Assembly (NCBI GenBank): GCA_016839605.1
Contig: JAEOTX010000057.1
Coordinates: forward strand, 1 to 32,452
Length of the DNA stretch: 32,452 nucleotides
Source: Candidatus Thorarchaeota archaeon
Lineage (GTDB): Archaea; Asgardarchaeota; Thorarchaeia; Thorarchaeales; Thorarchaeaceae
Reading direction: 5' to 3'
In this document: positions 4,298 through 18,351 of the stretch, in pieces
How the letters are laid out: every line of letters begins with the position of its first letter
How positions within the stretch are numbered: the stretch's first letter is position 1
Notes under the pieces: generated by a model
What the model saw: only the letters and a program-made list of their open reading frames with translations
What the model was told of the DNA's origin: nothing
The model's database searches: none
Position numbers and translations under genes: made by a program

Positions 4298-4720
4298 TCA
4301 TGAATGCACGTTCTCGATGTGGACATAGCTGACGCCTTCGAGTGCTGCAAGTTCGTTCCTCAGATCATCCACCGTATTGGTAAGCTGTCCAGGATTGAAG
4401 TAGCACTCATAGAAGCATCTCGTGCCGCGAAGGCAGACACCAGTTGAAAATAACAGATCGACAAGACCTGCTGACTTGAAGACTTGCGAGAGCTGAGTTA
4501 AGAAGTCATTTGTGAGTTTCTTAATCTCGACCGACAGAAAGCTTACCTCTTTGTCTTCGAGCGGGAAGATCTTGATGAGTCGGTCCTTGTGTACTAACAC
4601 CATCAATCCATTATTGGTCCCCATGGCGTCTTTGAATTGTGCAGGAAACTTCACATTCTCGTTGGCATCAAAAACGAGAACTCTACCGGCCGTAGCTCCA
4701 TCATAGTCTTCAGACATCAT
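4298..4720 (-). CDS. Hypothetical protein, possible AbrB/MraZ-like N-terminus plus ACT-like C-terminus
   Basis: VFDANENVKFPAQFKDAMG resembles the AbrB DxxGRIxIPxxxR motif. The C-terminal half (LSVEIK...FLTQLSQVFKSAG...LAALEGVSYVHI) has an ACT-like pattern. GGGTGA SD. Confidence 0.45.
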   Translation of the reverse strand: MMSEDYDGATAGRVLVFDANENVKFPAQFKDAMGTNNGLMVLVHKDRLIKIFPLEDKEVSFLSVEIKKLTNDFLTQLSQVFKSAGLVDLLFSTGVCLRGTRCFYECYFNPGQLTNTVDDLRNELAALEGVSYVHIENVHS

Positions 4721-4921: not shown

Positions 4922-5176
4922 ATGAAAGATCCAAAAAGAGGAACACTAGGAAGGTATCGAGATGTGTCTGAACTTCGCATCCAGTTCCAGTGTGAGTATC
5001 GATTCTACATCAGGCAAATGCAAGGCGAAGAATCCTCTAATGCCAGTAGAGAGGGCTCAAGGCTTCATCGAGAGGTTGGAATGAATCCAGGTCCTGGTCG
5101 CTCGTTGAATGCCTCAGTTATGGCAATAATTGTGATTGTGACCATTGCAGCTGCATTACTATGGGTGTTTGGGTGA
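4922..5176 (+). CDS. Small membrane-anchored protein carrying the N-terminal segment of a Cas4-like nuclease (84 aa)
   Basis: VSELRIQFQCEYRFYI resembles the Cas4 S-x-(L/I)-x3-(Y/F)-C-x-R segment with the first Fe-S Cys. EGSRLH matches the G-x2-(L/I)-H motif. C-terminal TM helix VMAIIVIVTIAAALLWVFG. Confidence 0.6.
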   Translation: MKDPKRGTLGRYRDVSELRIQFQCEYRFYIRQMQGEESSNASREGSRLHREVGMNPGPGRSLNASVMAIIVIVTIAAALLWVFG

Positions 5177-5181
5177 TATCG

Positions 5182-5838
5182 ATGGATCCTTTCGCGAGTG
5201 CCATTCTCCTTGCTGTGTTTATTGGAGGTGTCTTTGCAATACTCCATATGAGCTCTGGAGGTGCTTTCAATACCGCGGGCCGGCGCATTAGAAAGGCTCA
5301 ATCGTGTGAATGGACGCTAGCTGACTTCCTAAGTCTAAGGAGCACGCCGAACTCCAATAGATCATTTCTCTTCAATGAACAGCTAGTCTTTTCGTTGGGG
5401 CACCGGTTCAATGGCAGGTTCGATAACGCCGTCTTGCATTGGGAAGAAGCGCCTGTTCTGGACGCCATCATCGAACGTAAATTCCCCACTAGACATCTTC
5501 CAAAAAAGCCAAGAGACGAGGATATCTTCCAGGCAGGACTCTACGCTCTTGCCTTAATGGAGAGTGGTGTGTCTTGCGCTTCTACTAGGCTTGTTCTCAT
5601 CTATTGCTTGCAGAAGAATGCAAAGCAATGTGTTGGCCGAAACCATAATGACTGTGTGGTATGCAGTAATGGACTGGTGTTCAGCAGAAGATACAACCAA
5701 AAGCATGTGTTGCGAGCATTGGAAAAGCTTGACGAAGTCTGGTATCATGGACGAGAACCAAGAGCGGATCCCACAGAATGGAAATGCCGAGGTTGCCCAT
5801 ATGGACGAAATGGCACTTGTAATCATTCAGCTGCATAG
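5182..5838 (+). CDS. Cas4-like PD-(D/E)xK nuclease core with N-terminal transmembrane helix
   Basis: N-terminal TM AILLAVFIGGVFAIL. GRFD (motif II), IIERK (motif III), FQAGLY (QxxxY) and C-terminal CRGCPYGRNGTC. GGGTGA SD overlaps the upstream stop. No CRISPR array or cas1 in the window. Confidence 0.75.
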   Translation: MDPFASAILLAVFIGGVFAILHMSSGGAFNTAGRRIRKAQSCEWTLADFLSLRSTPNSNRSFLFNEQLVFSLGHRFNGRFDNAVLHWEEAPVLDAIIERKFPTRHLPKKPRDEDIFQAGLYALALMESGVSCASTRLVLIYCLQKNAKQCVGRNHNDCVVCSNGLVFSRRYNQKHVLRALEKLDEVWYHGREPRADPTEWKCRGCPYGRNGTCNHSAA

Positions 5839-6018
5839 GCAAAAGACATTTGACGATTCAACCCATTTCATTTTCAAGGTGATCTTAATCCGAGTACAGT
5901 AGTATCATAAGTTCTAGCTTCCTTGATGAAGATCTGGGACAGGGGTGATCTTTCTAATCCATTTTCTCTCTATTCATCGTGACTCGCTCAATTATGGAAG
6001 AATCAAGTCATCCTCAGA

Positions 6019-6035
6019 ATATTGTTTACTGTCAA
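6019..6035. repeat. Copy A of 17-bp direct repeat ATATT(G/A)TTTACTGTCAA
   Basis: ATATTGTTTACTGTCAA here versus ATATTATTTACTGTCAA at 10579-10595 (16/17 identical). Confidence 0.7.
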
Positions 6036-6163
6036 ACCAAGTACCTCCGTAAATGAAGGAAAGCGATGCTCAATGTAGACAATATATTAACGTTTGGATT
6101 GAAGTTCAGCCCTTTCTTTTGCGAGTTTCTGTTCCTATCATTTTGAGAGTAAGTATTCGTTTC

Positions 6164-6484
6164 TTAGCAACTATTTGAAAATGCCTTTTGCAATCTTCCT
6201 TTTCCGTCATAGCCAATGGTTTTATTCCAAAAGTATCTCATCATCATTTCCCTATCACTAGAAACCTCGTTCTCTGAGATATATTGGAAAATGGTTTCCC
6301 AAGTTACTCGTGGAAATTGCCTTCGCTGATTTTCTTTTATATGCCTCTTGAAGACAGATTCAATATTAGATTCTCGTTCAGACAAAACCAAACTAATAAG
6401 ATAGATGATTGAAGCCACAATTATCATGACTATGCCGGCTATGGCAGAAACCACGTTCAGTCCAACTTGAATGGCTTGATACAT
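6164..6484 (-). CDS. Hypothetical membrane-anchored protein, possibly frameshifted near its 3' end
   Basis: N-terminal TM helix and AT-rich sequence. Removing one T from the TTTT run near 6180 would extend it with AFQIVAKKRILTLKMIG...KG*. Confidence 0.45.
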   Translation of the reverse strand: MYQAIQVGLNVVSAIAGIVMIIVASIIYLISLVLSERESNIESVFKRHIKENQRRQFPRVTWETIFQYISENEVSSDREMMMRYFWNKTIGYDGKGRLQKAFSNSC

Positions 6485-6503
6485 TCATGCCAGCCCTGGG
6501 GTG

Positions 6504-7019
6504 TTACTGTTGAGTTTTCCAAATGTGACGCTTCCATGTTTCGCGTATCGTTCCCAACAGCAGAATTGTGATAAAGCCTGCCAAAGTCAGGATAATCCCA
6601 GTAAATAGAATCCCAGAATGGGGGAGTGGTCTTGCGACTTCGATGTGGAAAAAAATGGTTTCATTGTTATAGGGTGTGACAAGAATGGCATACATTCCTG
6701 GCAGGGGGATTTCAATCACATCGGAGTAGTTTTTAATTCCCTCAAGTGCGATTAATGGGTGAGTTTCTTCTAAGGACGCGTTCTCAAGTGCAATCATCAA
6801 TTCATCGTAACTCACTATATAGACGCAGAGAACGCTGCTGTTGTACGTATAGACCTCTATGTACGTGTTTCCGACTGCACCAAACACCCTCCCTTCGTAT
6901 GCGCCATGTTCAACTTCGGAGCTAAAGCCAAATTCACTAGATGGGACAAAGGAGATCAACAGAAAAGTGATCCCAATGATCATCAGCAACTTGCCGATTC
7001 TCACCGCAACTGAAGCCAT
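6504..7019 (-). CDS. Two-TM membrane protein with extracytoplasmic beta-rich domain (ABC accessory, paralog 2)
   Basis: N- and C-terminal TM helices. ALENASL and IEIP.PG.YAILVT.Y.N.T are shared with 7828-8409. Start set at the ATG 2 bp after the permease stop; the ORF track starts at 7094. Confidence 0.7.
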   Translation of the reverse strand: MASVAVRIGKLLMIIGITFLLISFVPSSEFGFSSEVEHGAYEGRVFGAVGNTYIEVYTYNSSVLCVYIVSYDELMIALENASLEETHPLIALEGIKNYSDVIEIPLPGMYAILVTPYNNETIFFHIEVARPLPHSGILFTGIILTLAGFITILLLGTIRETWKRHIWKTQQ

Positions 7020-7021
7020 CT

Positions 7022-7831
7022 CTAGATCTCCGCTTTCTCGAACGTAATAATGCTTGCAATGAGCGCGACCACTCCGATGAGCACTGCCCCGCAAATTCCA
7101 AAGAACACCTCTCCGGCTTGTAGTCCCATGTCGCCCCCACTGACAAAGGCATTGGTTAAGAGTATTGGATTGAGGACATTGCGAATAACATCTGGAATAC
7201 TTGGCATGACGATGACCAAAGCAATAACGTACCAGAGCGCGATTCCCATAATCGCAGTGACCTCTGCTTTCTTAGAGATAATTGAGATTAGCGTGGTTAC
7301 TGATGTAAGGAGCATTATGAACGCCCAGAGTGCAGCTGATAGGAGAAGAATGGAGAAGACCTCCCTGTTGCCAGGAACAAAGATGAAGATTACCGAGAGC
7401 GAGCTGAATGTAGCAGACATTCCCAGGAGGACAATCATCCCGGATACTTTCACCGCCAAAAATGTGATGCGATCAACGGGGTAGGACAAGTACGTATGTA
7501 GAGTTCCATCCTCGAAGCGTCCCGCCAACGTGAATGCTACGAGTAGTGGGACCACAAAGGTGAGAACATGAGAAAAGCTAAGAGCTGAGAATCCATAAAC
7601 CGATGCTGTCATGGTCTGTCGATACTCAACAAAGGACTCAATTGCCGCCGTTCCATTCCATTCCGGACCCGGTCTGAGAAGCACGTATCTTCCGGCACCA
7701 AATACTCCGAGAGTGCTGATGAATGCGATAAAGAGGAAGACCACAACCACAGCCTCAACCGTTGGGAATGAATATGACTGGTTGATTTCCAGTTCATAGA
7801 TGGATCGAAGATTCCCGCCTTCCCTCTTCAT
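7022..7831 (-). CDS. ABC-2 type transporter permease (paralog 2)
   Basis: About 6 TM helices, FEDGTLHTYLSYPVDR..FLAVK ABC-2 motif, ATGA overlap with the upstream gene. Confidence 0.85.
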   Translation of the reverse strand: MKREGGNLRSIYELEINQSYSFPTVEAVVVVFLFIAFISTLGVFGAGRYVLLRPGPEWNGTAAIESFVEYRQTMTASVYGFSALSFSHVLTFVVPLLVAFTLAGRFEDGTLHTYLSYPVDRITFLAVKVSGMIVLLGMSATFSSLSVIFIFVPGNREVFSILLLSAALWAFIMLLTSVTTLISIISKKAEVTAIMGIALWYVIALVIVMPSIPDVIRNVLNPILLTNAFVSGGDMGLQAGEVFFGICGAVLIGVVALIASIITFEKAEI

Positions 7832-8409
7832 AAAGCATTCCTTCTTTTATTGCTACTTCCGCCCATCAGTGCATCAGGATGGAGCTGCTCATTCACTGCT
7901 AGTCCATTGCTTTCTATCCCCTCGATTCTGTTCAAAGCTCGTGGTAGGATAGCAATGCACGCGCCCACAGAGAGCAGGAGAATCCCAGGAACAAGGACGC
8001 CTGCATTAGGATATGACCTATCGATGTCAACCATAACGGAACTCGTGTCATTATCGTACGATGTCACAAGGATCGCGTAGACTCCTGGCGATGGGATTTC
8101 GATGATGTCATTGCATTGTGTGATATTCTCCAGACTGACCAGCTGGTTCGTGTTATGAAGAGATGCATTCTCAAGGGCTCTTAGTGCATTCTCCGAGTCG
8201 AGAGCATACAGGGAGAAGCTCTGGTTTGTGATACTCCATGCCTCTACGTATATGTCATCAGTCGCCCTGAAAAGATAGCCCTTGTATATGCCGCTATCAA
8301 CATCAGTCCCAAAGCCGAAGCTGCCTGACCCAAGAAGTGCGACAAACACCAGCGTAATGCCAAGAGTCATCATGAGTGTAGATAGACGACTGTTCAAGGA
8401 GCCCATCAT
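7828..8409 (-). CDS. Two-TM membrane protein with extracytoplasmic beta-rich domain (ABC accessory, paralog 1)
   Basis: Paralog of 6504-7019. Translationally coupled to its neighbours (ATGA overlaps). Confidence 0.7.
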   Translation of the reverse strand: MMGSLNSRLSTLMMTLGITLVFVALLGSGSFGFGTDVDSGIYKGYLFRATDDIYVEAWSITNQSFSLYALDSENALRALENASLHNTNQLVSLENITQCNDIIEIPSPGVYAILVTSYDNDTSSVMVDIDRSYPNAGVLVPGILLLSVGACIAILPRALNRIEGIESNGLAVNEQLHPDALMGGSSNKRRNAL

Positions 8410-9215
8410 TGGACCTCCACTCTCTCAAACGCTACCAGACTTAGAGTAAGGACGACCAGTCCGACAAGCAATGTTCCCATCAAGACGATTGCCACATCCC
8501 AGGTCAGTAGCGTGCTTGTTTCTCCGGTCAACAAGCCTGCAACTGCAGCCACTGGGTTGAGAACTCCCTTGAAAGACTGGGGGAAGCCGGGGGTGTTCAC
8601 CAGTGTCAGAGCCGCTGACCAAGTCATCATCCCTGCAGCAGCACTGGCAACTGCTCTTCTTGAAACGATGCAGATCAGTACAGCCACTGAAGTAACAATC
8701 AAGATGAATATCCAAAGCGCAACGCTTAGTACGAGAATGGGGACAAGCTGCATGCTGCCGGGGATGAAGACGTGAACTGCAAGGAGCGAAAACACTGTGG
8801 CAGGCAAACCTGTTAGGAGCAGTATCGTGCCTACCTTCAATATCAGGATTCTGAAACGGGTTATTGGATACGTGAGAAAGGTCTGTAGAGTTCCATCCTC
8901 GAAGCCTTTTGCTAGGTTGAAACCAGCTAGCATAGGGATCAGCAGGATAAGAATGGAAATGAGGCCGGACAGAGAGGCTGCATACGCAGAAACTGAACCC
9001 TCCAAGAATCCGGAGTAGTGCTCGATCATCATAGTCCCATTCCATGATAGGCCTGGTCTGAGTTCCATCAGCATTGAGTCATTACCCACAGCTATTGCAC
9101 TCACAAGAGCCACGAACAGCAGGATTGCAGTGATACTCTCGAAGATTGGAAAGTAGTACGAGCAGTCCAGTTCCAGTTCAACGAAGGCCCGAAGATTCTT
9201 CCTCTCTTCACTCAT
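8406..9215 (-). CDS. ABC-2 type transporter permease (paralog 1)
   Basis: FEDGTLQTFLTYPITR..ILILK. Same length (269 aa) as 7022-7831 and shares LRPG..WNGT and VLNP with it. Confidence 0.85.
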   Translation of the reverse strand: MSEERKNLRAFVELELDCSYYFPIFESITAILLFVALVSAIAVGNDSMLMELRPGLSWNGTMMIEHYSGFLEGSVSAYAASLSGLISILILLIPMLAGFNLAKGFEDGTLQTFLTYPITRFRILILKVGTILLLTGLPATVFSLLAVHVFIPGSMQLVPILVLSVALWIFILIVTSVAVLICIVSRRAVASAAAGMMTWSAALTLVNTPGFPQSFKGVLNPVAAVAGLLTGETSTLLTWDVAIVLMGTLLVGLVVLTLSLVAFERVEVQ

Positions 9216-10125
9216 TTCTCACAAGCTCCTTAAAGGCGGCTTCAAGGCTGCCTGCCCTCTCGATTGCATACAATCTGATTCCCAAAGACGTGGCGGCATC
9301 CTCAACTTCTGCCTGAATGTCACTGATCTGACCTGATTCAAGATTGAAGGTGATGGAGTTCGCTCCCGAAACCCGGGGGCGTATCAAGCCCGGAAGTTGT
9401 TTTAGGATCTCCATGAGTCCGGCAGAATCAGATGTTATGATCCGGAAAGTATTCGATGTGTACTTCTCAATGATGTCCCGTACTGATCCCCTCTCAATTA
9501 TCTTACCAGCATCTATGAACGCGACTTGATGGCATACCCGTTCCAGTTCTGAGAGGATGTGTGAAGACACGAAGAACGAGACGCCCAATTCATGATGAAG
9601 GTTGACAATCAGATCCATTATGTCATCACGACCAGTCACATCTAGGTTTGATGTGGGCTCATCAAGGAACACCAATTCAGGACTCCCGACCAGAGCCTGA
9701 GCAATGCCAAGTCGTTGGTGCATCCCGGCTGAGAGATTCCCAATCTTTCTGTTCTTTGCGTAGGCAAGGTCAACCATGGTCAATAGGGCCTCAACTGATT
9801 TGTTGCTTCCATACAACTTTGCAACCTTGTCTAGGTAGTCCACGACTGTCATTGATTTCGGATAGGAGGGTCTTTCATGGAGGACTCCGATTCTTCTCCT
9901 CATCTCCAGTGAGTTCTTGCGTATGTCGAGGCCAAGGACCTTGCCTCCACCGACGTCAGGCCTGATGAGTCCGAGCAGTATCCGAAGAAGAGTAGTCTTT
10001 CCAGCTCCGTTTGGGCCAATGAGTCCGAAGATTCCTGAATCGACATCCAGATTCACGTTGTCCAGAGCCCTTACCTCACGAAAGTCCTTCACCAAATCAG
10101 TAACTGACACAACAAATTCCTGCAT
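9208..10125 (-). CDS. ABC transporter ATP-binding protein (DrrA/CcmA-like exporter)
   Basis: GPNGAGKTT Walker A, LSAGMHQR signature, FLDEPT Walker B, SSHIL H-loop. Confidence 0.95.
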   Translation of the reverse strand: MQEFVVSVTDLVKDFREVRALDNVNLDVDSGIFGLIGPNGAGKTTLLRILLGLIRPDVGGGKVLGLDIRKNSLEMRRRIGVLHERPSYPKSMTVVDYLDKVAKLYGSNKSVEALLTMVDLAYAKNRKIGNLSAGMHQRLGIAQALVGSPELVFLDEPTSNLDVTGRDDIMDLIVNLHHELGVSFFVSSHILSELERVCHQVAFIDAGKIIERGSVRDIIEKYTSNTFRIITSDSAGLMEILKQLPGLIRPRVSGANSITFNLESGQISDIQAEVEDAATSLGIRLYAIERAGSLEAAFKELVRNE

Positions 10126-10139
10126 GCTGAATCAATCCC

Positions 10140-10509
10140 CTCGCCTCTATCATTCTTGTGCAATTCTAATAAGAAACTCGGTCCGTGGTCTTCTGAGCTG
10201 AAGCTGTACTTGCTTGAGAAAGCAACAATTTGATTTATCAAATGAGATTTGGAATTACCTTCACTTCTAATAATAATGGTCTTCTTCTCTGTAGGCACTA
10301 AACGAAGGTTCAGCTGGCCTTCCTGTGATTTTCCCTCTTTCTAATTACAGGATCAGGAAGCAAGCTTATTTTTTCCAGTAAGTAGAAGCTGACTTCCTAA
10401 ACAGGGTTGGCCATACCTCTTTTTCAATATGCTGCTCAACCCGTTTCAGCACTTTGCATTCAATAGTATCATCCAGGGGCTTTGTTTTAGTATTTGCGCT
10501 GGTTGTCAT
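10140..10509 (-). pseudogene. Possible decayed gene remnant
   Basis: ATG at 10509 opens MTTSANTKTKPLDDTIECKVLKRVEQHIEKRG, interrupted by TAG after 37 codons. Protein-like fragments continue in shifting frames. Confidence 0.25.
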
Positions 10510-10567
10510 ATCGCTCTAACCCCTAGCGAGATTCCACTAAAATCATTCTAAGAATTCACACACTGGT

Positions 10568-10595
10568 TTGACCCAAGTATATTATTTACTGTCAA
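10568..10595. repeat. Copy B of the 17-bp repeat, within a 28-bp imperfect palindrome TTGACCCAAGT-ATATTA-TTTACTGTCAA
   Basis: TTGAC...GTCAA inverted ends in an 11-6-11 layout. Its right 17 bp recur at 6019-6035. Confidence 0.6.
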
Positions 10596-10621
10596 CTTAG
10601 GCTGCAAACGGTTGTTAGATG

Positions 10622-13600
10622 CTAGAGTTCATAGAAACTGATACCTTCTCCTTCGAGGACGTTGATGACCTCCTCTCGGATGGTGCTAAGCATATCCTCC
10701 TCAAGATCAAAGGCGGAGAGATTGTTCTTCACCTCGCTATCAACAGGCTCAGAGGATATAGCGCTTGCATATTGAGAGTTACCCATATACTTCTTGACAT
10801 TATTCACCACGCAGACCTCCAGATTATCCCCTTCATCTGCCTCCAAAAAAACAATGACCACCGTGTTAGATTGCAATTTCCTGATTTCGAGTCCCCTGTA
10901 CCTGAAGACGCAATTCCTTTCGTATAAAGGAATGGCACCATCCAATGTTGACTGGAATTCCTCATACCTCTCAGCTAGAGTTATCCTGTGGCTTTCAAAT
11001 TCATCATCAAGATTGTTGAGATAGGAGGTAGGAATCACAGATTCGACTTCCTGTCTAAATGCCTCCAGCTCTTCGTCAGGCGGCCTACCTGGAGTCAGTA
11101 TAAACGTGAATGACTTATTCATCCATGCCTTTTGTGTGGACTTCGATATAATAGACCAGACCAGCTGATTACCCTTTATCCTGTTCGAAAGCCTCCAGGT
11201 ATCACTTGACCAATCGAACTCATCGATATCCGCAGCCCGAATTGCTTCCTCAAACCGTGGGTACTGGTGGAGCCTCGAGAACCTAAGGTCCATGATGGCG
11301 TTAGCATTAAGTCTGACAGGATGCCACGTCCCCTTCCGCGAATCAAAGAGCGCCTTGCATTCAGCTAGCAACGCTAAAGCAAAGATATCGAATCCAACTT
11401 CCTCCAATCCTCTCAGGGATGAGTCTTGCGATAAATCCTCCATCTGGACATGATAGGCAGAATCTAGCCGCCGAATTACCAAAGTGACATCATCCCCGTT
11501 GGTCGAGGCGAGAAGCTCCCTGCAGGTCCTTGGATAATGAAACTCATCGGGGTAGAATCGGCTTCGATGAACTAAAGGTTTCAGAAACGAGAGTACATCG
11601 TCATCATAGTCGATATCACTTTTGTAATCCCATGCGAGGGTATTGCCCAGTGACCAATATCCCTTTCCCATTCGGATTGGAGTTCTGAGGAAGTGTACAA
11701 GCTCCTGCGTCCTTCCAAACTCATGTCGTTCCTCAACTGATTCACCCTCAATATTGACCTCATAAACCCTCAGGTCATCGTTGACATTCACCCTTAGTTT
11801 CACTGGTATGGTCTTGTGTTTCACTCGGGATAGCTTAACAAGTGCCTCCTCAATATAATCTGGAACCTCAGGCACATTAGTAGGAGGCACGAAGCCAGCT
11901 GTTGATTCCAGCTTGATCCAAGGAATGCTATTCTGCCGCCCGCTAGGTTTCCCATGGATAAGAGAGAATGAAGCCCATTCAAGTTCCTCATATTCGTTTA
12001 GTACAGGAATCCAGAGAATTTTAGTGTCCTGAACTGTGGTTACGATAAGTGAAGTTCTATCGGTTGACGATAGGGCTTCTCTTGCAAATTCCTTCAACCG
12101 CTGAGGAGCGGTCACGCACTGATGCCATTTCGACGGAATCCATCTATCGTTGAGCCCCTCAATAAATCCTGTTAGGACTCCATCATCATAAGGAATAATG
12201 ATAAGACCGTCATATCCAGATTCGGACTCCTCCCACACAATTGCACCAACCTGTTCTTCATCTGTCGCTCTCTCAGGAAGGTTGAGCTGTGAGAGAGTCT
12301 TAGTTCGAGTTCTGAGGTTGGATAAGATTGCCTGAAAGCTATACACTGACTTAGATTTGCTATCCTGCGTGTGCATGCCAAGCTGGTAGAATGTCCATTC
12401 CCCTACTGAGTTCCAGAGATGTTCTGCAAGATCCTGATTCCTGTCTTTTATAGCTGCTAAGACAGCTAAGAACAGGTTGTTGCCATACAGGAGGAGTAGG
12501 TCAGGAGTCGCTTCAACAATCTCCTCCATGGACTGCTTGTTCTCGGAGTTCAAGACTTCGTGAAGATTTTGTCTGAGGGGTAGAAGATCTTGCCAGACTG
12601 AAGCTCTCTTGGGGTCTTCAAGGATGATAAGCTGAATCTTCCTGAGTGAACCAAGGAAGAACTCCTTTCCGTTAAGGGAAGGGTTCTCCTTGAGAAGGGC
12701 AAACTGCTTTTCACAGACCTTCTCTATTCTCTTGCAGCAGTCCTTCAGACTCTTTGATAGGAAATGCTGTTTCCTCAGATATCGTGTCGCATGATAGAGC
12801 CGCCTGAGCTCAAGTTCGCGGGTTTCAAGGGTATCGATTCCGTTAGCCCCGATGTTGAAAGACATTTGAGTGTGAGTAAACACATTGGATTCTTCTTCAT
12901 CATCAATTTGCCTAGGCGTGAGTTCATAGAACCAGCGTCGTGTGATTTTCTTCTTTGGGCTTGTAAGAACATCACAATATCTTCTCTCTCCTCTTCTCGG
13001 GATGGGTGGAGGTCTTGTGACATCGAGGACCAACCTCTCACCCATTGTCGAGCCCCTTGTGGAGCTCACTGTCTGGACCATCGTCTGCCACTGAGGCTTC
13101 TTCGTTGGTTCTACGGGTTCTTCTTCTACTTCCTTGACAGACACATGGTCTCTACTCCTGAGGACGCTGGGCACAAGTGTCAGTGCATCCTCAAGGACCT
13201 CAGAGAATGATTCGCCTGATAGACTCCCAGTAGAAGCATAGATGCTGGAGAGGGTCACTCCTCTCTCGTACATGGACTGAGCTTCAGTAGTGTATGCGAT
13301 CACATCCTCAGGAGCGACGATTCTGTCCCGTCTAGCAAGTCCTCTGAACTTCTCTGCAAATCCCACAAGATGGGGGACGTGGATTGCAGCTCTCCAGGGT
13401 TCAGCCTTGGTTGGGGTGTCCTGCACAATGATTCGAACATTCTCCTGATGAGGGGTCGACCAACCAAATCCCCAGGGCGTCGTGGAGATATTATAGATGA
13501 CCTCGTCAAGATGGGTTCTACGAGGCGAGTCATGTCTGATTGGATTGACACATTTGCGCTGGTAATGTACATTCATTCGAGTATGAGGGGTTCCACTGTC

Positions 13601-15889
13601 AATCCAGATGATATTGACATTCGACTGGGGAAGAGAGTCAAGCAGATGCTGCTCAAGGGCACGGACGAGACTCTGCTGATATGCTGGAACCATCTCTTTG
13701 AGTTCCATCCAGCCATCAAGGATGATGATACGCTCATCCTCCTTCTCCTCAGGAAGAATGGTCCTGACGTGCTGGTCCAGTCTGTCTAGTGCCTCTGCTC
13801 CTTCTGTCAGAATGTCCGTAATGTTTGCGCTTAAGTCTAAAAACTCGATGGACTTGAGGGTAGCGTTGAGCTTTCGGTGGTCTATGCTAGAGATCATCTT
13901 CTCACGTAACAGAGAATCAAGACCGAATCGCTTCCCTACCAGTTCATCTGTCTTATAGTCCCCCTTGAGATCCAACCAAACGACCTTTTCGATAGGTGCC
14001 GTTGAGGTCTCGAGGCACTCTTGTATATGATGAAGGAGGTGCCAGTTTCGTGAGAGTCGTGCCGCCGTCACTCCCGAGGAGGTAGGTGAGGGAATTGACA
14101 CATAGAGTGTGAGGATGCGGTCGTCTGCCTCTCGGTCACTGAAGGGGCTCTCCACAGGTAGACTACATGGAATGACCATCTCATCCAAGAGGTCGGTTGG
14201 TCCACGGGAGGGGGCTACAAGTAGACCAACTCTTGGAACATCATCTCCAGTCCCTAGAGATTCTGGTGAAACTGAGATAGGTGCGTCCTGGTTGACAAGC
14301 TGATGAATGAGTCCTGTCGTCAGTTCTTCAAGGAGGAACTGAAAGGCTGGAAAGATCTCTATTGGGGTCTGGTCTGTATCTAGGACAATGACACCTTTCC
14401 ACAGAGAGGTTGGTGGAGTCGAATCGAAAGCCACTAGCTTCTCATAATCAGCAAGCATCTCATGTTCGTAGGTGTGTAGCTGCTGAAGTGCATCTGGTTC
14501 TGGACTCGATGTGACGAGAGAATTCCATTCGGCTTCGCTCAATGCGCGTTTCCAAGCATAGAAGGCAGGAGTGACTGATCTCTTTCGTTTGCGGATGATC
14601 TCCATTCCATAGAGGCTGAAGTCAAAGGCGGTCTTGGTCTTGACCTCAAGTACCATCACAGGTGTCCAGATGATTCGATCTGTGACCTCTCGTCTTATGA
14701 AGATGGTTAGGTCCACATGTCCAGAGCGTTTCGCAACAGGCAACTCAGCGACCACAAGAATTGGTGTCAGTGAATCGAGCATTTTGTCCCCTGAGAACAC
14801 TACTTGTCTCAATGAAACGGGATGGTGGAGATTGGAGAGGAGTATCCTGTGCCAGTTGTTTCCTTCTCGCTGACTGAGAGCTAATACGTGTTCGATGAGT
14901 TTCTCAACATCCTTGTCTGCAACCATTCCCTCATCAGTATCAATGTAGTCCAAAAGCTCTTCCATTGACTTTCTCTCAGTCTTGTCAGCTGCTTCCTTGA
15001 GCTGCCTGATAGCCTTCTTTCGAATCTTTTCGATGGACAGGTCTATCGAGCTCTCTCCGTGTGTCTTTGAGATTCGCTGACGAGTCCTGCTACGTTTCCT
15101 GTAGAGTGCCCGAATCTCAAGGACAATCTTCCTGAGCTCATAATCTGCATGGGGATTGAAGTTTGGTCTACCTGTCCTTCCATCAGTGTATATCCAATCA
15201 AGGAAAGGCTTCAGTCGATGAATGAGGAGCTGAATGTATCGATGCGACTCAGTCATAGGGACATGATAGATGAAACATTGCCGACAGAGTTCGACACAAT
15301 GAGCCCTGATCATATCCACAAAATCTAGTCCTGGCAGGGTGGGATGAGATAGAAATATCCGGGGGCTCTTTGCCTCTCGCTCGTACCCATATCGCCAGTA
15401 AATCTTCGTAGCGCCATCATCCACTATTTCGTCAGCTTCAGTCTTAGTGAATATTCTCTTGCTCCCATCTAGATATTCACGAATCTGAAATGCTTGCGGT
15501 CTTGGAAATGGGTAGAGGGTCATAGCAATATCGCGAAGTCGTGCTCCTGCATAGTTGAGTAGAGCGTTGAGTGGACCGACGGTTCCCTCCAGCCAGCTAT
15601 AGACCCGCTTGAGCTCTTTGTTTCCGAATCGCTTAGTGCTAGTCCATACAATCTTGAGAAACTGGCCACGCATATTTGGCTCTGCATTCTGGACGTGAGA
15701 AAAGTCGGTACCCCCCTGTTCGAAGTCTTTACGGGCTGAGTTCCACATCTTCTCGATGCTCTGATAGTGCCTACGAGTCTTCCTACTTACTCTATTCCGA
15801 GCTATTCGAGTCAATGCTACAAGGCCCATGTATATTGCAGTACTGATGGTACCACTTGGATTGTCGATCTTTCCTTTTCGACCCCTCAT
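10622..15889 (-). CDS. Giant multidomain protein (~1755 aa): RecB/Cas4-like PD-(D/E)xK nuclease, degenerate RecA-like ATPase fold, and uncharacterised C-terminal ~1000 aa
   Basis: Uninterrupted 5.3-kb ORF. EGNNWH, VAELP, GHVD, LEVK and QLHTY motifs (aa ~350-482 of the track ORF). SPTSSGVT, KVVWLD and IIILDG pattern (aa ~600-775). TTTATATG at 15920-15913 favours a leaderless ATG at 15889 over GTG 15913. Confidence 0.7.
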   Translation of the reverse strand: MRGRKGKIDNPSGTISTAIYMGLVALTRIARNRVSRKTRRHYQSIEKMWNSARKDFEQGGTDFSHVQNAEPNMRGQFLKIVWTSTKRFGNKELKRVYSWLEGTVGPLNALLNYAGARLRDIAMTLYPFPRPQAFQIREYLDGSKRIFTKTEADEIVDDGATKIYWRYGYEREAKSPRIFLSHPTLPGLDFVDMIRAHCVELCRQCFIYHVPMTESHRYIQLLIHRLKPFLDWIYTDGRTGRPNFNPHADYELRKIVLEIRALYRKRSRTRQRISKTHGESSIDLSIEKIRKKAIRQLKEAADKTERKSMEELLDYIDTDEGMVADKDVEKLIEHVLALSQREGNNWHRILLSNLHHPVSLRQVVFSGDKMLDSLTPILVVAELPVAKRSGHVDLTIFIRREVTDRIIWTPVMVLEVKTKTAFDFSLYGMEIIRKRKRSVTPAFYAWKRALSEAEWNSLVTSSPEPDALQQLHTYEHEMLADYEKLVAFDSTPPTSLWKGVIVLDTDQTPIEIFPAFQFLLEELTTGLIHQLVNQDAPISVSPESLGTGDDVPRVGLLVAPSRGPTDLLDEMVIPCSLPVESPFSDREADDRILTLYVSIPSPTSSGVTAARLSRNWHLLHHIQECLETSTAPIEKVVWLDLKGDYKTDELVGKRFGLDSLLREKMISSIDHRKLNATLKSIEFLDLSANITDILTEGAEALDRLDQHVRTILPEEKEDERIIILDGWMELKEMVPAYQQSLVRALEQHLLDSLPQSNVNIIWIDSGTPHTRMNVHYQRKCVNPIRHDSPRRTHLDEVIYNISTTPWGFGWSTPHQENVRIIVQDTPTKAEPWRAAIHVPHLVGFAEKFRGLARRDRIVAPEDVIAYTTEAQSMYERGVTLSSIYASTGSLSGESFSEVLEDALTLVPSVLRSRDHVSVKEVEEEPVEPTKKPQWQTMVQTVSSTRGSTMGERLVLDVTRPPPIPRRGERRYCDVLTSPKKKITRRWFYELTPRQIDDEEESNVFTHTQMSFNIGANGIDTLETRELELRRLYHATRYLRKQHFLSKSLKDCCKRIEKVCEKQFALLKENPSLNGKEFFLGSLRKIQLIILEDPKRASVWQDLLPLRQNLHEVLNSENKQSMEEIVEATPDLLLLYGNNLFLAVLAAIKDRNQDLAEHLWNSVGEWTFYQLGMHTQDSKSKSVYSFQAILSNLRTRTKTLSQLNLPERATDEEQVGAIVWEESESGYDGLIIIPYDDGVLTGFIEGLNDRWIPSKWHQCVTAPQRLKEFAREALSSTDRTSLIVTTVQDTKILWIPVLNEYEELEWASFSLIHGKPSGRQNSIPWIKLESTAGFVPPTNVPEVPDYIEEALVKLSRVKHKTIPVKLRVNVNDDLRVYEVNIEGESVEERHEFGRTQELVHFLRTPIRMGKGYWSLGNTLAWDYKSDIDYDDDVLSFLKPLVHRSRFYPDEFHYPRTCRELLASTNGDDVTLVIRRLDSAYHVQMEDLSQDSSLRGLEEVGFDIFALALLAECKALFDSRKGTWHPVRLNANAIMDLRFSRLHQYPRFEEAIRAADIDEFDWSSDTWRLSNRIKGNQLVWSIISKSTQKAWMNKSFTFILTPGRPPDEELEAFRQEVESVIPTSYLNNLDDEFESHRITLAERYEEFQSTLDGAIPLYERNCVFRYRGLEIRKLQSNTVVIVFLEADEGDNLEVCVVNNVKKYMGNSQYASAISSEPVDSEVKNNLSAFDLEEDMLSTIREEVINVLEGEGISFYEL

Positions 15890-15912
15890 CGCTGAAATAG
15901 TATCAAGAGGCA

Positions 15913-16130
15913 CATATAAATATAATTAATTTCGTTGGTAACCAAAATTACTCTAAATCATAATTTAAGCCATGATAAGCCTAATTTTATAAAATTGGGC
16001 TATTATAACATTATAATCTTAATAAGTTTATATTCATTCTGTATTACTATTTGGTAGGAGTTCAAAACCGATTCTCAAGACGAGGATTGGAGTGAACTCT
16101 CAAAGAAACAGGTCAGAAGTTTATATTCAT
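15913..16130. promoter_or_regulatory. AT-rich divergent promoter region with palindromic operator-like site and duplicated TATA element
   Basis: TATA boxes at 15920-15913 (-) and 16027-16034 (+). 24-bp palindrome AGCCTAATTTTATAAAATTGGGCT at 15978-16001. AAGTTTATATTCAT repeated at 16024-16037 and 16117-16130. Confidence 0.65.
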
Positions 16131-16142
16131 CAGGTGTATGAA

Positions 16143-17921
16143 ATGGGTCGCTCCAAGGGAACGATAATCAGCGTTAAAGTCCCAATCCGTTGGGGAGTCA
16201 TGACTGATAGGCAGAAGACTCGGCTCAACCGTATCACAGGTAGAGACACACGAGTCATCAAGGCCTATCTTGGAGTGATTGAACGCCATGAGAACGAATT
16301 GCTGACAGGTCGCAAACGGACGAGAATAAACGCTTCCCTATTGGATAAGCTCACCTTGACTGCATCACGGGGAAAGGCAGACAGGAGTCATGTGCCTCAT
16401 GACTTCAAGTCACGGTTTTCCAACATCTCTGTGAATGAGTTTCAGGAGTGTCGCGATACTGCGATTGCCATGTGGCAGAGCTACCTTGAGTTAAATCGCA
16501 GAAAGCCTCTTAGTGCGAAGAGATACTCAACGAGGAAGATTCCTCGATATGCATTCGCTCAACGTTTTCAGCGAATTTACGCACCAGAGCTCGAGATAAG
16601 ACACTGGCTCAAGCTTCGTGATTCGTTAGACTCCGTTTCTGCGGGTTGTAAAAGGCATGATAAACTCATGATCCCTCTCTCAATCTCCTCCTATCATCTA
16701 AACAAGATGAAAGAGGGTAAGGTGAAGACTGTTCGTATCTTCAAGGACTCCCGTCGCAAATGGTGGGCTATCTTCACTGTGACGCTCGATATAGAAGTCC
16801 TGGAATCATCTATGAAACCTCCTGCAGTCTTGTCTATTGACTTGGGGATCGACAAGGCTGCGTGCTCCGTGCTTCTTACTCAGAAAGGATACAAGCAAGT
16901 CAGATACTGGAAACAGGAAGACAAGCTTCGACGAATGAGAGCGTTGGATGACAGGATTGCTTCTCTTCAGAGGGAGAAGGAAACACTTCTTTCACAGGGA
17001 AGGAATGCTGATGCAGTCAGCAGAAAACTCCGGAGCCTGAGCGGAAAAAGACAGCGTGTTAGTAAAGAGCTTGACAAGAATCTGGTCAAGGGCATCTCGG
17101 AACACATCCAAGAGATGGCCGACCAATTCGACCTCTATGTCTCAATTGGCAAGGTGAAGGGCATAAGGAACACAGCTCGAAGAGGCAACTTCAAGGGAAG
17201 TAAGTTCAGAGGTATGATTCACCGCTGGGCCTTCGCCAGGATTCGCGATATGTTGGACCATAAGCTCGCTACGCTTGGTTTTGATGGCAAGCATTACAGA
17301 GCTGTTCCTGAACAATGGACTTCAATCATGTGTCACAAGTGCGGACACAAGGGAATGCGACCGAAACAGAATCTCTTCATCTGTCACACCTGTGGATATC
17401 GTGCAAACGCCGACCTGAACGGCGCCATCAATATTGGGAAGCGCCTCATCATGCTCATCCGCTCACTGAGAGATGAGAAAGGACTAGGGATGTGGCTCAC
17501 TCCAAAGGACAGAGCCATCCTGAAAGCCCGGAGGAAGACTCGTTCATCTCAAGGGAAGTCCTCATTCCCCCAGAAGTTGCCAGCTTCGATTGAAGGGGAG
17601 TCCGTGGCTGACTGCAGTGACCAGACCTCACTTGTGGAGTTTGCGAGCAGTGAAGACCCCGCCATGGTAAAAGCTGTGGAAGAACCGTCTGCATCCAGCA
17701 AATCTGGTAGCGCTGGAGGAATGCAGCGGACAGAAGCCGGGTCCCGACAGAGGAACAATGTTCCGCTGAAGTTGGGCAAAGCTCCCGTCATTTCAAGAGA
17801 TGAAAGTCTTTTGGAAGCTGGTGACAGCAGTCGTGAGAAAGGTGGAACGCAGAAGTTTCTTGTTGGTTCACTCAACCAAAAACAAGCAACAGTTCCTAGG
17901 CAAAAGAGTAATCTCCCTTGA
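16143..17921 (+). CDS. tnpB: TnpB/Cas12f-like RNA-guided nuclease with rearranged RuvC-II, and no adjacent tnpA
   Basis: RuvC-I LSIDLG, HRWAFARIRDMLDHK helix, WTSIMCHKCG...FICHTCG zinc finger, RuvC-III NADLNGAINI. The RuvC-II position reads VSIGK. Start set at ATG 16143 (AGGTG SD); the track starts at 16092. Confidence 0.88.
   Translation: MGRSKGTIISVKVPIRWGVMTDRQKTRLNRITGRDTRVIKAYLGVIERHENELLTGRKRTRINASLLDKLTLTASRGKADRSHVPHDFKSRFSNISVNEFQECRDTAIAMWQSYLELNRRKPLSAKRYSTRKIPRYAFAQRFQRIYAPELEIRHWLKLRDSLDSVSAGCKRHDKLMIPLSISSYHLNKMKEGKVKTVRIFKDSRRKWWAIFTVTLDIEVLESSMKPPAVLSIDLGIDKAACSVLLTQKGYKQVRYWKQEDKLRRMRALDDRIASLQREKETLLSQGRNADAVSRKLRSLSGKRQRVSKELDKNLVKGISEHIQEMADQFDLYVSIGKVKGIRNTARRGNFKGSKFRGMIHRWAFARIRDMLDHKLATLGFDGKHYRAVPEQWTSIMCHKCGHKGMRPKQNLFICHTCGYRANADLNGAINIGKRLIMLIRSLRDEKGLGMWLTPKDRAILKARRKTRSSQGKSSFPQKLPASIEGESVADCSDQTSLVEFASSEDPAMVKAVEEPSASSKSGSAGGMQRTEAGSRQRNNVPLKLGKAPVISRDESLLEAGDSSREKGGTQKFLVGSLNQKQATVPRQKSNLP
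17470..17890 (+). ncRNA. Candidate omega/reRNA scaffold overlapping the 3' end of tnpB
   Basis: Consecutive hairpins with G-U pairs on the + strand, including an 11-bp stem with GAAA loop (17791-17816). The overlying ~130 aa are low-complexity. The position matches known TnpB reRNAs. Confidence 0.6.
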
Positions 17922-17937: not shown

Positions 17938-18351
17938 ATGCAAGAGATGAGGGAACTCCTGAACTACGTGATCAAATCAAAGCGATATCTCAAAGAGATA
18001 TACTACACCAATCGAGATGAGAATCTGAAAGCTGATGCGAAGGAGCTTGTCGCAGCCATAATAGCAGTTCAGAGAACTCTCGAGCACATTTTGACTTTGA
18101 AGCGAAGATCAAAGACAGCCAAGAGAGTTCTTGGAGACAGGAAAGCTGAGATGTCAGTTAGGCGGTGGAGTGCAGGACTTCCCCGAAGAGTGAGTGACTA
18201 CGTCGAGAAGGAGAAGAAGCTGGAGCAGCATCATCTACATAGATATCAGGTTATTCTTCTCCAATATTTGGAGAATATGGGGACTGAACTAGTCGCATGG
18301 GCTGAGGACATCGATATGCTTCGCGAAATTCCTCGCATACCCAAGGACTAG
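17938..18351 (+). CDS. Hypothetical alpha-helical protein (137 aa)
   Basis: GAGGT SD before ATG 17938. Charged helical composition. The track start at 17800 overlaps tnpB and is unlikely. Confidence 0.65.
   Translation: MQEMRELLNYVIKSKRYLKEIYYTNRDENLKADAKELVAAIIAVQRTLEHILTLKRRSKTAKRVLGDRKAEMSVRRWSAGLPRRVSDYVEKEKKLEQHHLHRYQVILLQYLENMGTELVAWAEDIDMLREIPRIPKD

Follow-up and report, generated by a model that had tools for sequence, protein, structure and literature searches.

We found that two adjacent genes from a Thorarchaeota genome probably encode the two halves of a single, membrane-held nuclease of the Cas4/Exo5 type. In particular, we analyzed a stretch of 32,452 nucleotides of contig JAEOTX010000057.1 from a Candidatus Thorarchaeota archaeon (hereafter the window) in which gene 1 (4922..5176) encodes a protein of 84 aa and gene 2 (5182..5838) encodes a protein of 218 aa when read from a start that specifies MDP; both genes, and all of the features of the pair given below, are on the + strand. 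Gene 1 is predicted to specify an N-terminal nuclease module followed by a C-terminal tail-anchor helix (the first transmembrane, or TM, helix; TM1). Gene 2 is predicted to specify an N-terminal TM helix (TM2), a PD-(D/E)XK core, and a C-terminal triad of Cys residues. In the explanation that we favor, and that we consider reasonably well founded though far from certain, the two genes are coupled, originated by fission of one gene, and together specify one PD-(D/E)XK nuclease that is independent of CRISPR. The fold and the chemistry of such an enzyme are known, whereas its architecture is new.

A split, doubly membrane-anchored Cas4-like nuclease had been proposed previously from the nucleotide sequence and its open reading frames (hereafter the sequence-only reading), and the features on which that proposal was built were all found in place. 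Thus, gene 1 contains the motif stretch VSELRIQFQCEYRFY, with its single Cys encoded at 4991-4993, the motif EGSRLH (5051-5068), and a C-terminal hydrophobic helix, whereas translation of gene 2 restarts 5 bp further on, with a GGGTGA before it, and yields an N-terminal hydrophobic helix followed by GRFD, ERK, QAGLY, CxxC-x7-C, and extra Cys residues. These motifs are not there by chance. Across 25 gene 1 homologues (82-98 aa in the relatives, and encoded directly upstream of gene 2) the residues L18, Q21, C24, E25, G45, L48, and H49 are invariant; among these are Cys24 (4991..4993), the proposed first Fe-S ligand, and the residues of the G45-x2-L48-H49 motif (5054..5068). Similarly, the RecB-type PD-(D/E)XK motifs G-x-x-D, ExK, and QxxxY are all invariant in 22 gene 2 homologues, as G78, R79, and D81 of GRFD (5413..5424; nuclease motif II, with the catalytic Asp), E98 and K100 of E-R-K (5473..5481; nuclease motif III), and Q117 and Y121 of QAGLY (5530..5544). 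The same 22 homologues share all three Cys residues of C202-x2-C205-x7-C213 (5785..5820), which are the putative C-terminal Fe-S ligands, and all four Cys residues of a C-x7-C-x7-C-x2-C block (C142, C150, C158, and C161; 5605..5664). Judging from its sequence, the four-Cys block is a possible second metal site.

The 4Fe-4S cluster of Cas4 is ligated by one N-terminal Cys and three C-terminal Cys residues. This pattern (one N-terminal Cys together with a C-terminal C-x2-C-x5-7-C) is complete in the pair and is spread over two chains. Note that gene 2 specifies an additional Cys, within QSCEW, that we entertained as the fourth ligand and then ruled out; this residue is S, A, or P in most of the 22 gene 2 homologues. 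Cys24 of gene 1, by comparison, is invariant not only in the 25 gene 1 sequences but also in the single-chain relatives described below (C39 of alignment A6). Thus a cluster, if present, needs ligands from both chains, and the pattern of conservation suggests that an Fe-S cluster is shared between them.

Searches with a gene 2 profile defined a tight family (21 representatives with E < 1e-30; the weakest full-length member, P0143, matched at 2e-40), beyond which, a few short fragments aside, the next full-length proteins matched at about 1e-6. These next matches are archaeal single-chain proteins of ~250 aa that contain no hydrophobic segment, an example being RLG71568.1 (P0155) from a Thermoprotei archaeon. 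Against Pfam they match PDDEXK_1, and of six that were scanned three exceed the Exo5 cut-off (27-31 bits compared to 25 bits). In these proteins both halves of the pair are present, in order, within one chain, where the motifs of gene 1 (Q-Y-Y-C-E ... G-x2-L-H) precede those of gene 2 and where the same C, E, G, H, D, ExK, QxxxY, W..R, and CxxC..C are invariant; that is, the G and H of the gene 1 G-x2-L-H motif, the motif II Asp, and the Glu and Lys of motif III are as strictly kept there as in the pair. In hhalign comparisons with the single-chain family, the gene 1 family fell on residues 30-72 (Prob 96.1%, E 3e-9) and the gene 2 family on residues 103-255 (Prob 99.5%, E 2.6e-22). The single-chain proteins are soluble and without TM segments, and have residues ~73-102 where the pair has TM1, the break, TM2, and a linker. 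These placements indicate that TM1, the stop, the start, TM2, and the linker replace a soluble segment of ~30 residues. Of note, the four-Cys block of gene 2 is missing from most of the single-chain relatives, with a similar block being present in P0149 and P0161. The C202/C205/C213 triad aligns with the CxxC...C of the single-chain relatives and of human EXO5; no other solved structure was recovered by sequence, and the EXO5 match (E 0.0069) runs through the W-x3-R-x-P ... C-x2-C ... C region.

We modeled the assembly of the two halves solely by way of a natural in-frame version of the pair. At locus L021 the two genes are in the same frame and are split by a TGA and three codons, and reading the TGA as Trp yields a chain of 303 aa (P0125). 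The model of this read-through chain (mean pLDDT 80.1, pTM 0.76, core >90) has a helix at the position equivalent to TM1 and matched Cas4 of the Cas4-Cas1 fusion 7mi4_A with a Z score of 15.7 (rmsd 3.5 over 190 residues, spanning residues 5-203 of that chain), the type I-C Cas4 with a Z score of 15.0, human EXO5 (7lwa) with a Z score of 13.6 (177 residues, spanning 74-357), AdnAB with a Z score of 12.8, and both SSO0001 and MGME1 with a Z score of 11.8. Gene 2 of the window folded alone (pLDDT 82.6, with a helix at residues 3-24) covered residues 54-180 of Cas4 (Z 10.6, 124 residues) and residues 148-353 of EXO5 (Z 7.7), and thus does not make the complete fold. Comparison of the two models suggests that gene 1 supplies the N-terminal quarter of the domain (~50 residues of Cas4), together with the first Cys of the cluster. 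(The four-Cys block was modeled with a confidence of only about 80.)

By sequence, the nearest described family appears to be Exo5/PDDEXK_1 rather than Cas4 proper. Gene 2 scored 18.5 bits against PDDEXK_1 (PF12705), below the 22-bit cut-off, whereas the read-through chain P0125 scored 22.0 bits, and two gene 2 homologues carry a precomputed PF12705 match. Against the cas4 model TIGR00372 gene 2 scored 21.4 bits, compared to a cut-off of 65, and did so over its C-terminal 41 residues only. No match to PF01930 was found for gene 1, for gene 2, or anywhere in the genome, none to Exo5 (PF09810; cut-off 25 bits) was found for the pair itself, and a library profile scan with gene 1 returned no Pfam or NCBIfam family. 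Cas4 models of PADLOC matched weakly (E 1.7e-6 at best), so that PADLOC and PHROGs between them gave weak Cas4 or exonuclease echoes only, and the ESM Atlas returned the protein's own cluster and generic PDDEXK_1 clusters and nothing else. Both by sequence and by gene context, the pair falls outside Cas4 proper. (A second PDDEXK_1 match in the genome, C221, was considered as a relative and set aside; it is without the cluster cysteines and is unrelated.)

Nucleases with an iron staple, such as Cas4, EXO5, AddB, and Dna2, are known as single chains or as domains, with the cluster fastening the N-terminal part of the fold to the C-terminal part. Cas4 (SSO0001, 4IC1; type I-C, 8D3L; Cas4-Cas1 fusion, 7MI4) has the fold seen in our model, the same RecB-type motifs, and the same pattern of one N-terminal and three C-terminal Cys residues as the pair, but differs from it in that the pair consists of two chains, each with a TM helix, contains the extra invariant four-Cys block, scores far below the Cas4 family cut-offs, and has no association with cas genes or CRISPR. 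EXO5 (PF09810; human structures 7LW7-7LWA) is the best match by sequence among solved structures and shares the modeled fold; it is, however, a single soluble chain, and the pair falls under the Exo5 sequence threshold. In the nuclease domains of AddB, AdnAB, and Dna2 (Z 8-13 against our model) the cluster likewise staples an N-terminal Cys to three C-terminal ones, but these are domains of large helicase-nuclease machines, whereas the pair has no helicase and its staple would join two polypeptides. Like the pair, solo-Cas4 proteins (PMC5704561 and, for M. mazei, PMC12501428) are encoded away from cas genes. The phylogenomic study of Cas4 (Hudaiberdiev et al. 2017, PMC5704561) mentions no transmembrane or split forms, and no description of a split or membrane-anchored Cas4/Exo5-type protein was found in the literature searched.

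The division into two genes is conserved. Gene 2 has 107 homologues, nearly all labeled Thorarchaeota and mostly 210-225 aa in length, and in whole-genome searches it was present in 34 of 43 sampled genomes of one Thorarchaeota family and in none of 157 genomes from 26 other families of the phylum. At 33 of the 34 loci of relatives that hold gene 2, both genes are intact and adjacent. (These 33 loci comprise 28 of the 30 returned by the whole-genome search, together with L002 and four metagenome loci; the 28 represent 27 distinct stretches because L025 repeats L001, and the other two of the 30 are the window itself and L012.) The offset in frame between gene 1 and gene 2 is 0, 1, or 2 depending on the locus, the spacer ranges from an overlap of 25 nt to a gap of 23 nt (-25 to +23), and gene 1 ends in TGA at 23 loci and in TAA at 4. 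In public records the two genes carry adjacent locus tags. Homologues of 261-312 aa in the databases were examined as candidate fusions and rejected, since their N-termini are an alternative frame of the gene 1 TM region; these entries are gene 2 over-extended in the wrong frame across the hydrophobic tail of gene 1, with an intact gene 1 of 88 aa lying underneath. No fused form was found from the gene 2 side, and none was found among the longer proteins searched with gene 1, although the latter is weak evidence. A database search with gene 1 itself returned 14 entries, a small number that we attribute to gene 1 being unannotated in several public assemblies. Note that, as a practical matter, several public Thorarchaeota assemblies lack an annotation of gene 1 (uncalled examples being L040:3738-4004, L041:2091-2360, L043:2352-2618, and L044:2352-2618) and have gene 2 mis-started, often with an over-long start in the wrong frame.

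The layout of the two genes points to coupled translation. The ATG of gene 2 at 5182 lies five bases past the stop of gene 1, in a different frame, and the TGA of that stop (5174-5176) sits within GGGTGA (5171..5176), which reads as a Shine-Dalgarno-like core for gene 2. A GGTGA-type core overlies the stop of gene 1 in at least 14 of 27 related loci. (Alternative starts at ATG 5161, which would give a gene 2 product of 225 aa, and at GTG 4877 were judged less likely.) Change among relatives is concentrated at the third codon position in both genes, with values of 0.35 compared to 0.17 and 0.13 for gene 1 and 0.44 compared to 0.20 and 0.15 for gene 2. Because the arrangement of stop and restart is conserved while the offsets and spacers vary, an assembly error and any single recoding mechanism are excluded, and translational coupling is indicated.

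Both chains are predicted to be anchored in the membrane. TM1 (gene 1 residues 66-84; 5117..5173) is a hydrophobic stretch of 19 residues with a mean Kyte-Doolittle (KD) value of 2.75 and no residue after it, and TM2 (gene 2 residues 3-21; 5188..5244) is a 19-residue stretch that follows MDP, has a mean KD value of 2.41, and is followed by the basic sequence RRIRK. The usual KD threshold for a TM segment is 1.6. Over 28 loci the best 19-residue windows average 2.83 (minimum 2.19) for gene 1 and 2.58 (minimum 2.08) for gene 2, and the hydrophobic segments are 19-22 residues long with KD values of 2.1-3.2. TM1 ends in a conserved small-x2-L-W motif, with the Trp near the end, and is followed by 0-2 residues in 26 of the 28 loci and by 4-7 in three outliers, two of which (L027 and L030) lie outside the 26 while the third is counted among them; with a single C-terminal TM helix, no N-terminal signal, and an N-terminal domain predicted to be cytosolic, gene 1 fits the pattern of a tail-anchored protein. 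TM2 is preceded by a short acidic or neutral N-terminus, and the 15 residues that follow it have a mean net charge of +3. Assignment of topology from such features draws on the positive-inside rule and the tail-anchor pattern. The short tail after TM1 and the charge after TM2 suggest, on this basis, that both chains are inserted with their soluble, catalytic parts facing the cytoplasm and with the chain ends at the break-point facing outward, just as though the outer loop of a TM hairpin had been cut through. Placement in the cytoplasm would also suit the requirement for Fe-S assembly.

These observations suggest the following mechanism. Gene 1 would contribute the N-terminal helices, the first Fe-S Cys, G-x2-L-H, and the tail-anchor TM helix, and gene 2 would contribute a TM helix, the catalytic Asp, ExK, QxxxY, the four-Cys block, and the CxxC-x7-C triad. 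Placement of the gene 2 ribosome-binding site inside the stop of gene 1 would favor synthesis of the two chains in a 1:1 ratio. The two helices would then pair in the membrane in the manner of the cut hairpin, keeping the soluble parts on the cytoplasmic side, where they may dock into a single nuclease domain whose Fe-S cluster would draw one Cys ligand from chain 1 and the other three from chain 2. With regard to origin, the pair probably arose when a soluble single-chain ancestor underwent fission and gained two helices. By analogy with Cas4 and EXO5, the enzyme most likely depends on metal and either cuts DNA that has free ends or degrades it in the 5'-to-3' direction.

We considered whether the split might instead be an artefact or a recent pseudogene, the product of a frameshift or of an error in sequencing or assembly. 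The two open reading frames are indeed in different frames and 5 nt apart, and in public annotations gene 1 is often overlooked and gene 2 made too long; however, the same stop and restart recurs in over 30 independent assemblies, which span 32-89% identity, the offsets and spacers vary among them, and both reading frames are intact and under coding-type constraint, which leaves this explanation with next to no probability. Recoding, by programmed frameshift or by read-through of the stop, would yield a single polypeptide with an internal TM hairpin, which is topologically equivalent to the arrangement that we propose and which might be suggested by the very short junction and by L021, where the genes are in frame and a TGA and three codons apart. 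However, some lineages have an offset of 2, others an offset of 1, and one an offset of 0, and no single event fits all of them; moreover, the loci have no slippery site in common, gene 2 retains its own start (M-D/N-P), and the SD-like core recurs in the loci noted above. We therefore regard recoding as highly improbable. It is also conceivable that the two hydrophobic helices do not span the membrane and serve as a zipper that rejoins the chains in a soluble complex. The sole demonstrable property common to the helices is their hydrophobicity and their position at the break-point, and the small residues conserved in both would suit helix-helix packing. Set against this, their length and KD values are those of segments far above the TM threshold, a Trp lies at the end of TM1 and basic residues follow TM2, almost nothing follows TM1 (the signature of a tail anchor combined with a signal anchor), and soluble zippers are amphipathic whereas these helices are not. 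A soluble zipper thus seems unlikely to us.

A further alternative is that gene 2 specifies a self-sufficient membrane-anchored nuclease, with gene 1 specifying a separate small membrane protein, regulator, or chaperone. Gene 2 does hold all of the catalytic residues, its product folds alone with the confidence given above, and Cas4-family nucleases can cut DNA without the cluster, according to two reports (PMC12501428 and PMC8610317). Furthermore, one genome (G081) keeps gene 2 despite a disrupted gene 1; there a TnpB-type gene whose C-terminal end borders the locus has eliminated the N-terminal half of gene 1 (L012:1-576, G081:C80), leaving its G..LH motif and TM segment and an intact gene 2. 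But homology links gene 1 to the N-terminal segment of the single-chain proteins, the cluster Cys and G..LH included, the addition of gene 1 extends the match to Cas4 from 124 to 190 residues and raises the Z score from 10.6 to 15.7, and gene 2 has just three conserved Cys residues at the cluster site, so that we think it rather improbable that gene 2 acts on its own. Several observations nevertheless weigh against two chains that form one nuclease around a shared cluster. Judging from G081, gene 2 may be able to do without gene 1, for some time at least. For Solo-Cas4 of M. mazei (PMC12501428), mutation of the cluster cysteines is reported not to abolish nuclease activity, suggesting that a shared cluster might be structural and not essential. 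The fold was obtained with an artificial covalent link (the in-frame TGA read as Trp) and from unpaired alignment rows, the alignment used for the model wrongly set the TM rows of gene 1 on the columns of TM2, and the C-terminal Cys region of the model is of low confidence (pLDDT 37-61). Finally, the gene context offers no functional clue. Low confidence at the C-terminal Cys region is expected in a model that contains no cofactor, and the artificial link does not appear to force docking, as long low-confidence linkers join the soluble parts to the helices in the model.

The sequence-only reading had named in advance three findings that would count against a fold and cluster assembled from two chains: homologues that are single fused reading frames, a gene 2 that supplies the fourth Cys and folds completely, and two genes that do not co-occur. 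What we observed is that the split is conserved across genomes, that gene 2 does not supply the fourth Cys and alone makes an incomplete fold, and that the two genes co-occur and, in the genomes examined, are lost or damaged together. None of the three contrary findings was made, and the proposed assembly from two chains is supported. If the pair is indeed a two-chain nuclease, then it would provide a natural test of whether the cluster serves assembly or catalysis, would offer a rare example of a cluster shared between the subunits of a nuclease, and would be, to our knowledge and in the literature searched, the first membrane-anchored member of the Cas4/Exo5 group. The host is an Asgard archaeon, a group that draws evolutionary interest for its relatives of eukaryotic proteins of genome maintenance, EXO5 among them. 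If confined to the inner surface of the membrane, the enzyme may act on DNA ends arising at that surface; that the substrate is DNA entering the cell, for example foreign DNA at the inner membrane face, is a guess to which we attach a low probability. We are similarly doubtful of a more elaborate version, in which an obligate heterodimer (held by the TM pair and the shared cluster) is a CRISPR-independent device, specific to this Asgard lineage, for defence against DNA entry or for DNA uptake, possibly with the shared cluster and the additional four-Cys site acting as a redox gate.

To describe the genomic context of the pair we used six loci with called genes. The pair always lies between a divergent upstream gene that encodes a protein of 140 aa and a downstream gene that encodes a protein of 137 aa (gene 3). 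The upstream gene adjoins genes for a VTT/DedA-like protein, a CpXC protein, and inositol-1-phosphate synthase, and gene 3 is followed downstream by an eRF1 paralogue and PheRS. No cas genes or defence context were found at five of the six loci, the exception being L001, where a RAMP-family gene lies about 4.6 kb upstream with five genes intervening. In our explanation, vertical inheritance has kept the pair at one housekeeping locus of a single Thorarchaeota family, independently of CRISPR.

The pair is dispensable, as both genes are missing in one genus and decaying in another, and the two are lost together. In the first case (three genomes that are 96-99% complete; L033-L035) the genes that normally flank the pair are adjacent to one another. 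In the second (G046) a decayed gene 1 remnant of 66 aa without a TM segment persists (L036:2862-3062, G046:C39) and gene 2 is deleted.

Gene 3 (17938..18351, + strand) encodes a conserved, all-helical protein of 137 aa with the motifs LKEIYYTTR, LPRRV, and HLHRYQ, for which no family match was found. It is directly downstream of gene 2 in every locus of a relative that was fetched with downstream sequence (31 rows; L020 is too short), and it was found beside the eRF1 paralogue in 40 of the family's 43 genomes, as well as in the single genome sampled from a sister family. We considered gene 3 as an obligate third partner and rejected the idea, since the gene occurs also where the pair is absent; it is probably a mere neighbor. 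In the window gene 3 is parted from the pair by an insert of ~12 kb (5847-17895) that landed exactly at the stop codon of gene 2 and lies between two copies of an 11-bp direct repeat, TAGGCAAAAGA (5836-5846 and 17896-17906). The insert is absent from the close relative L004, where gene 3 comes directly after the gene 2 stop.

On the other side of the pair, the protein of 140 aa is encoded at 4298-4720 on the - strand, in an orientation that diverges in every case from the pair or from gene 3. The protein is strongly conserved (phmmer E about 1e-61 in the five loci tested), has no Pfam match, and contains a conserved C-x5-C-x3-C stretch, GVCLRGTRCFYEC.

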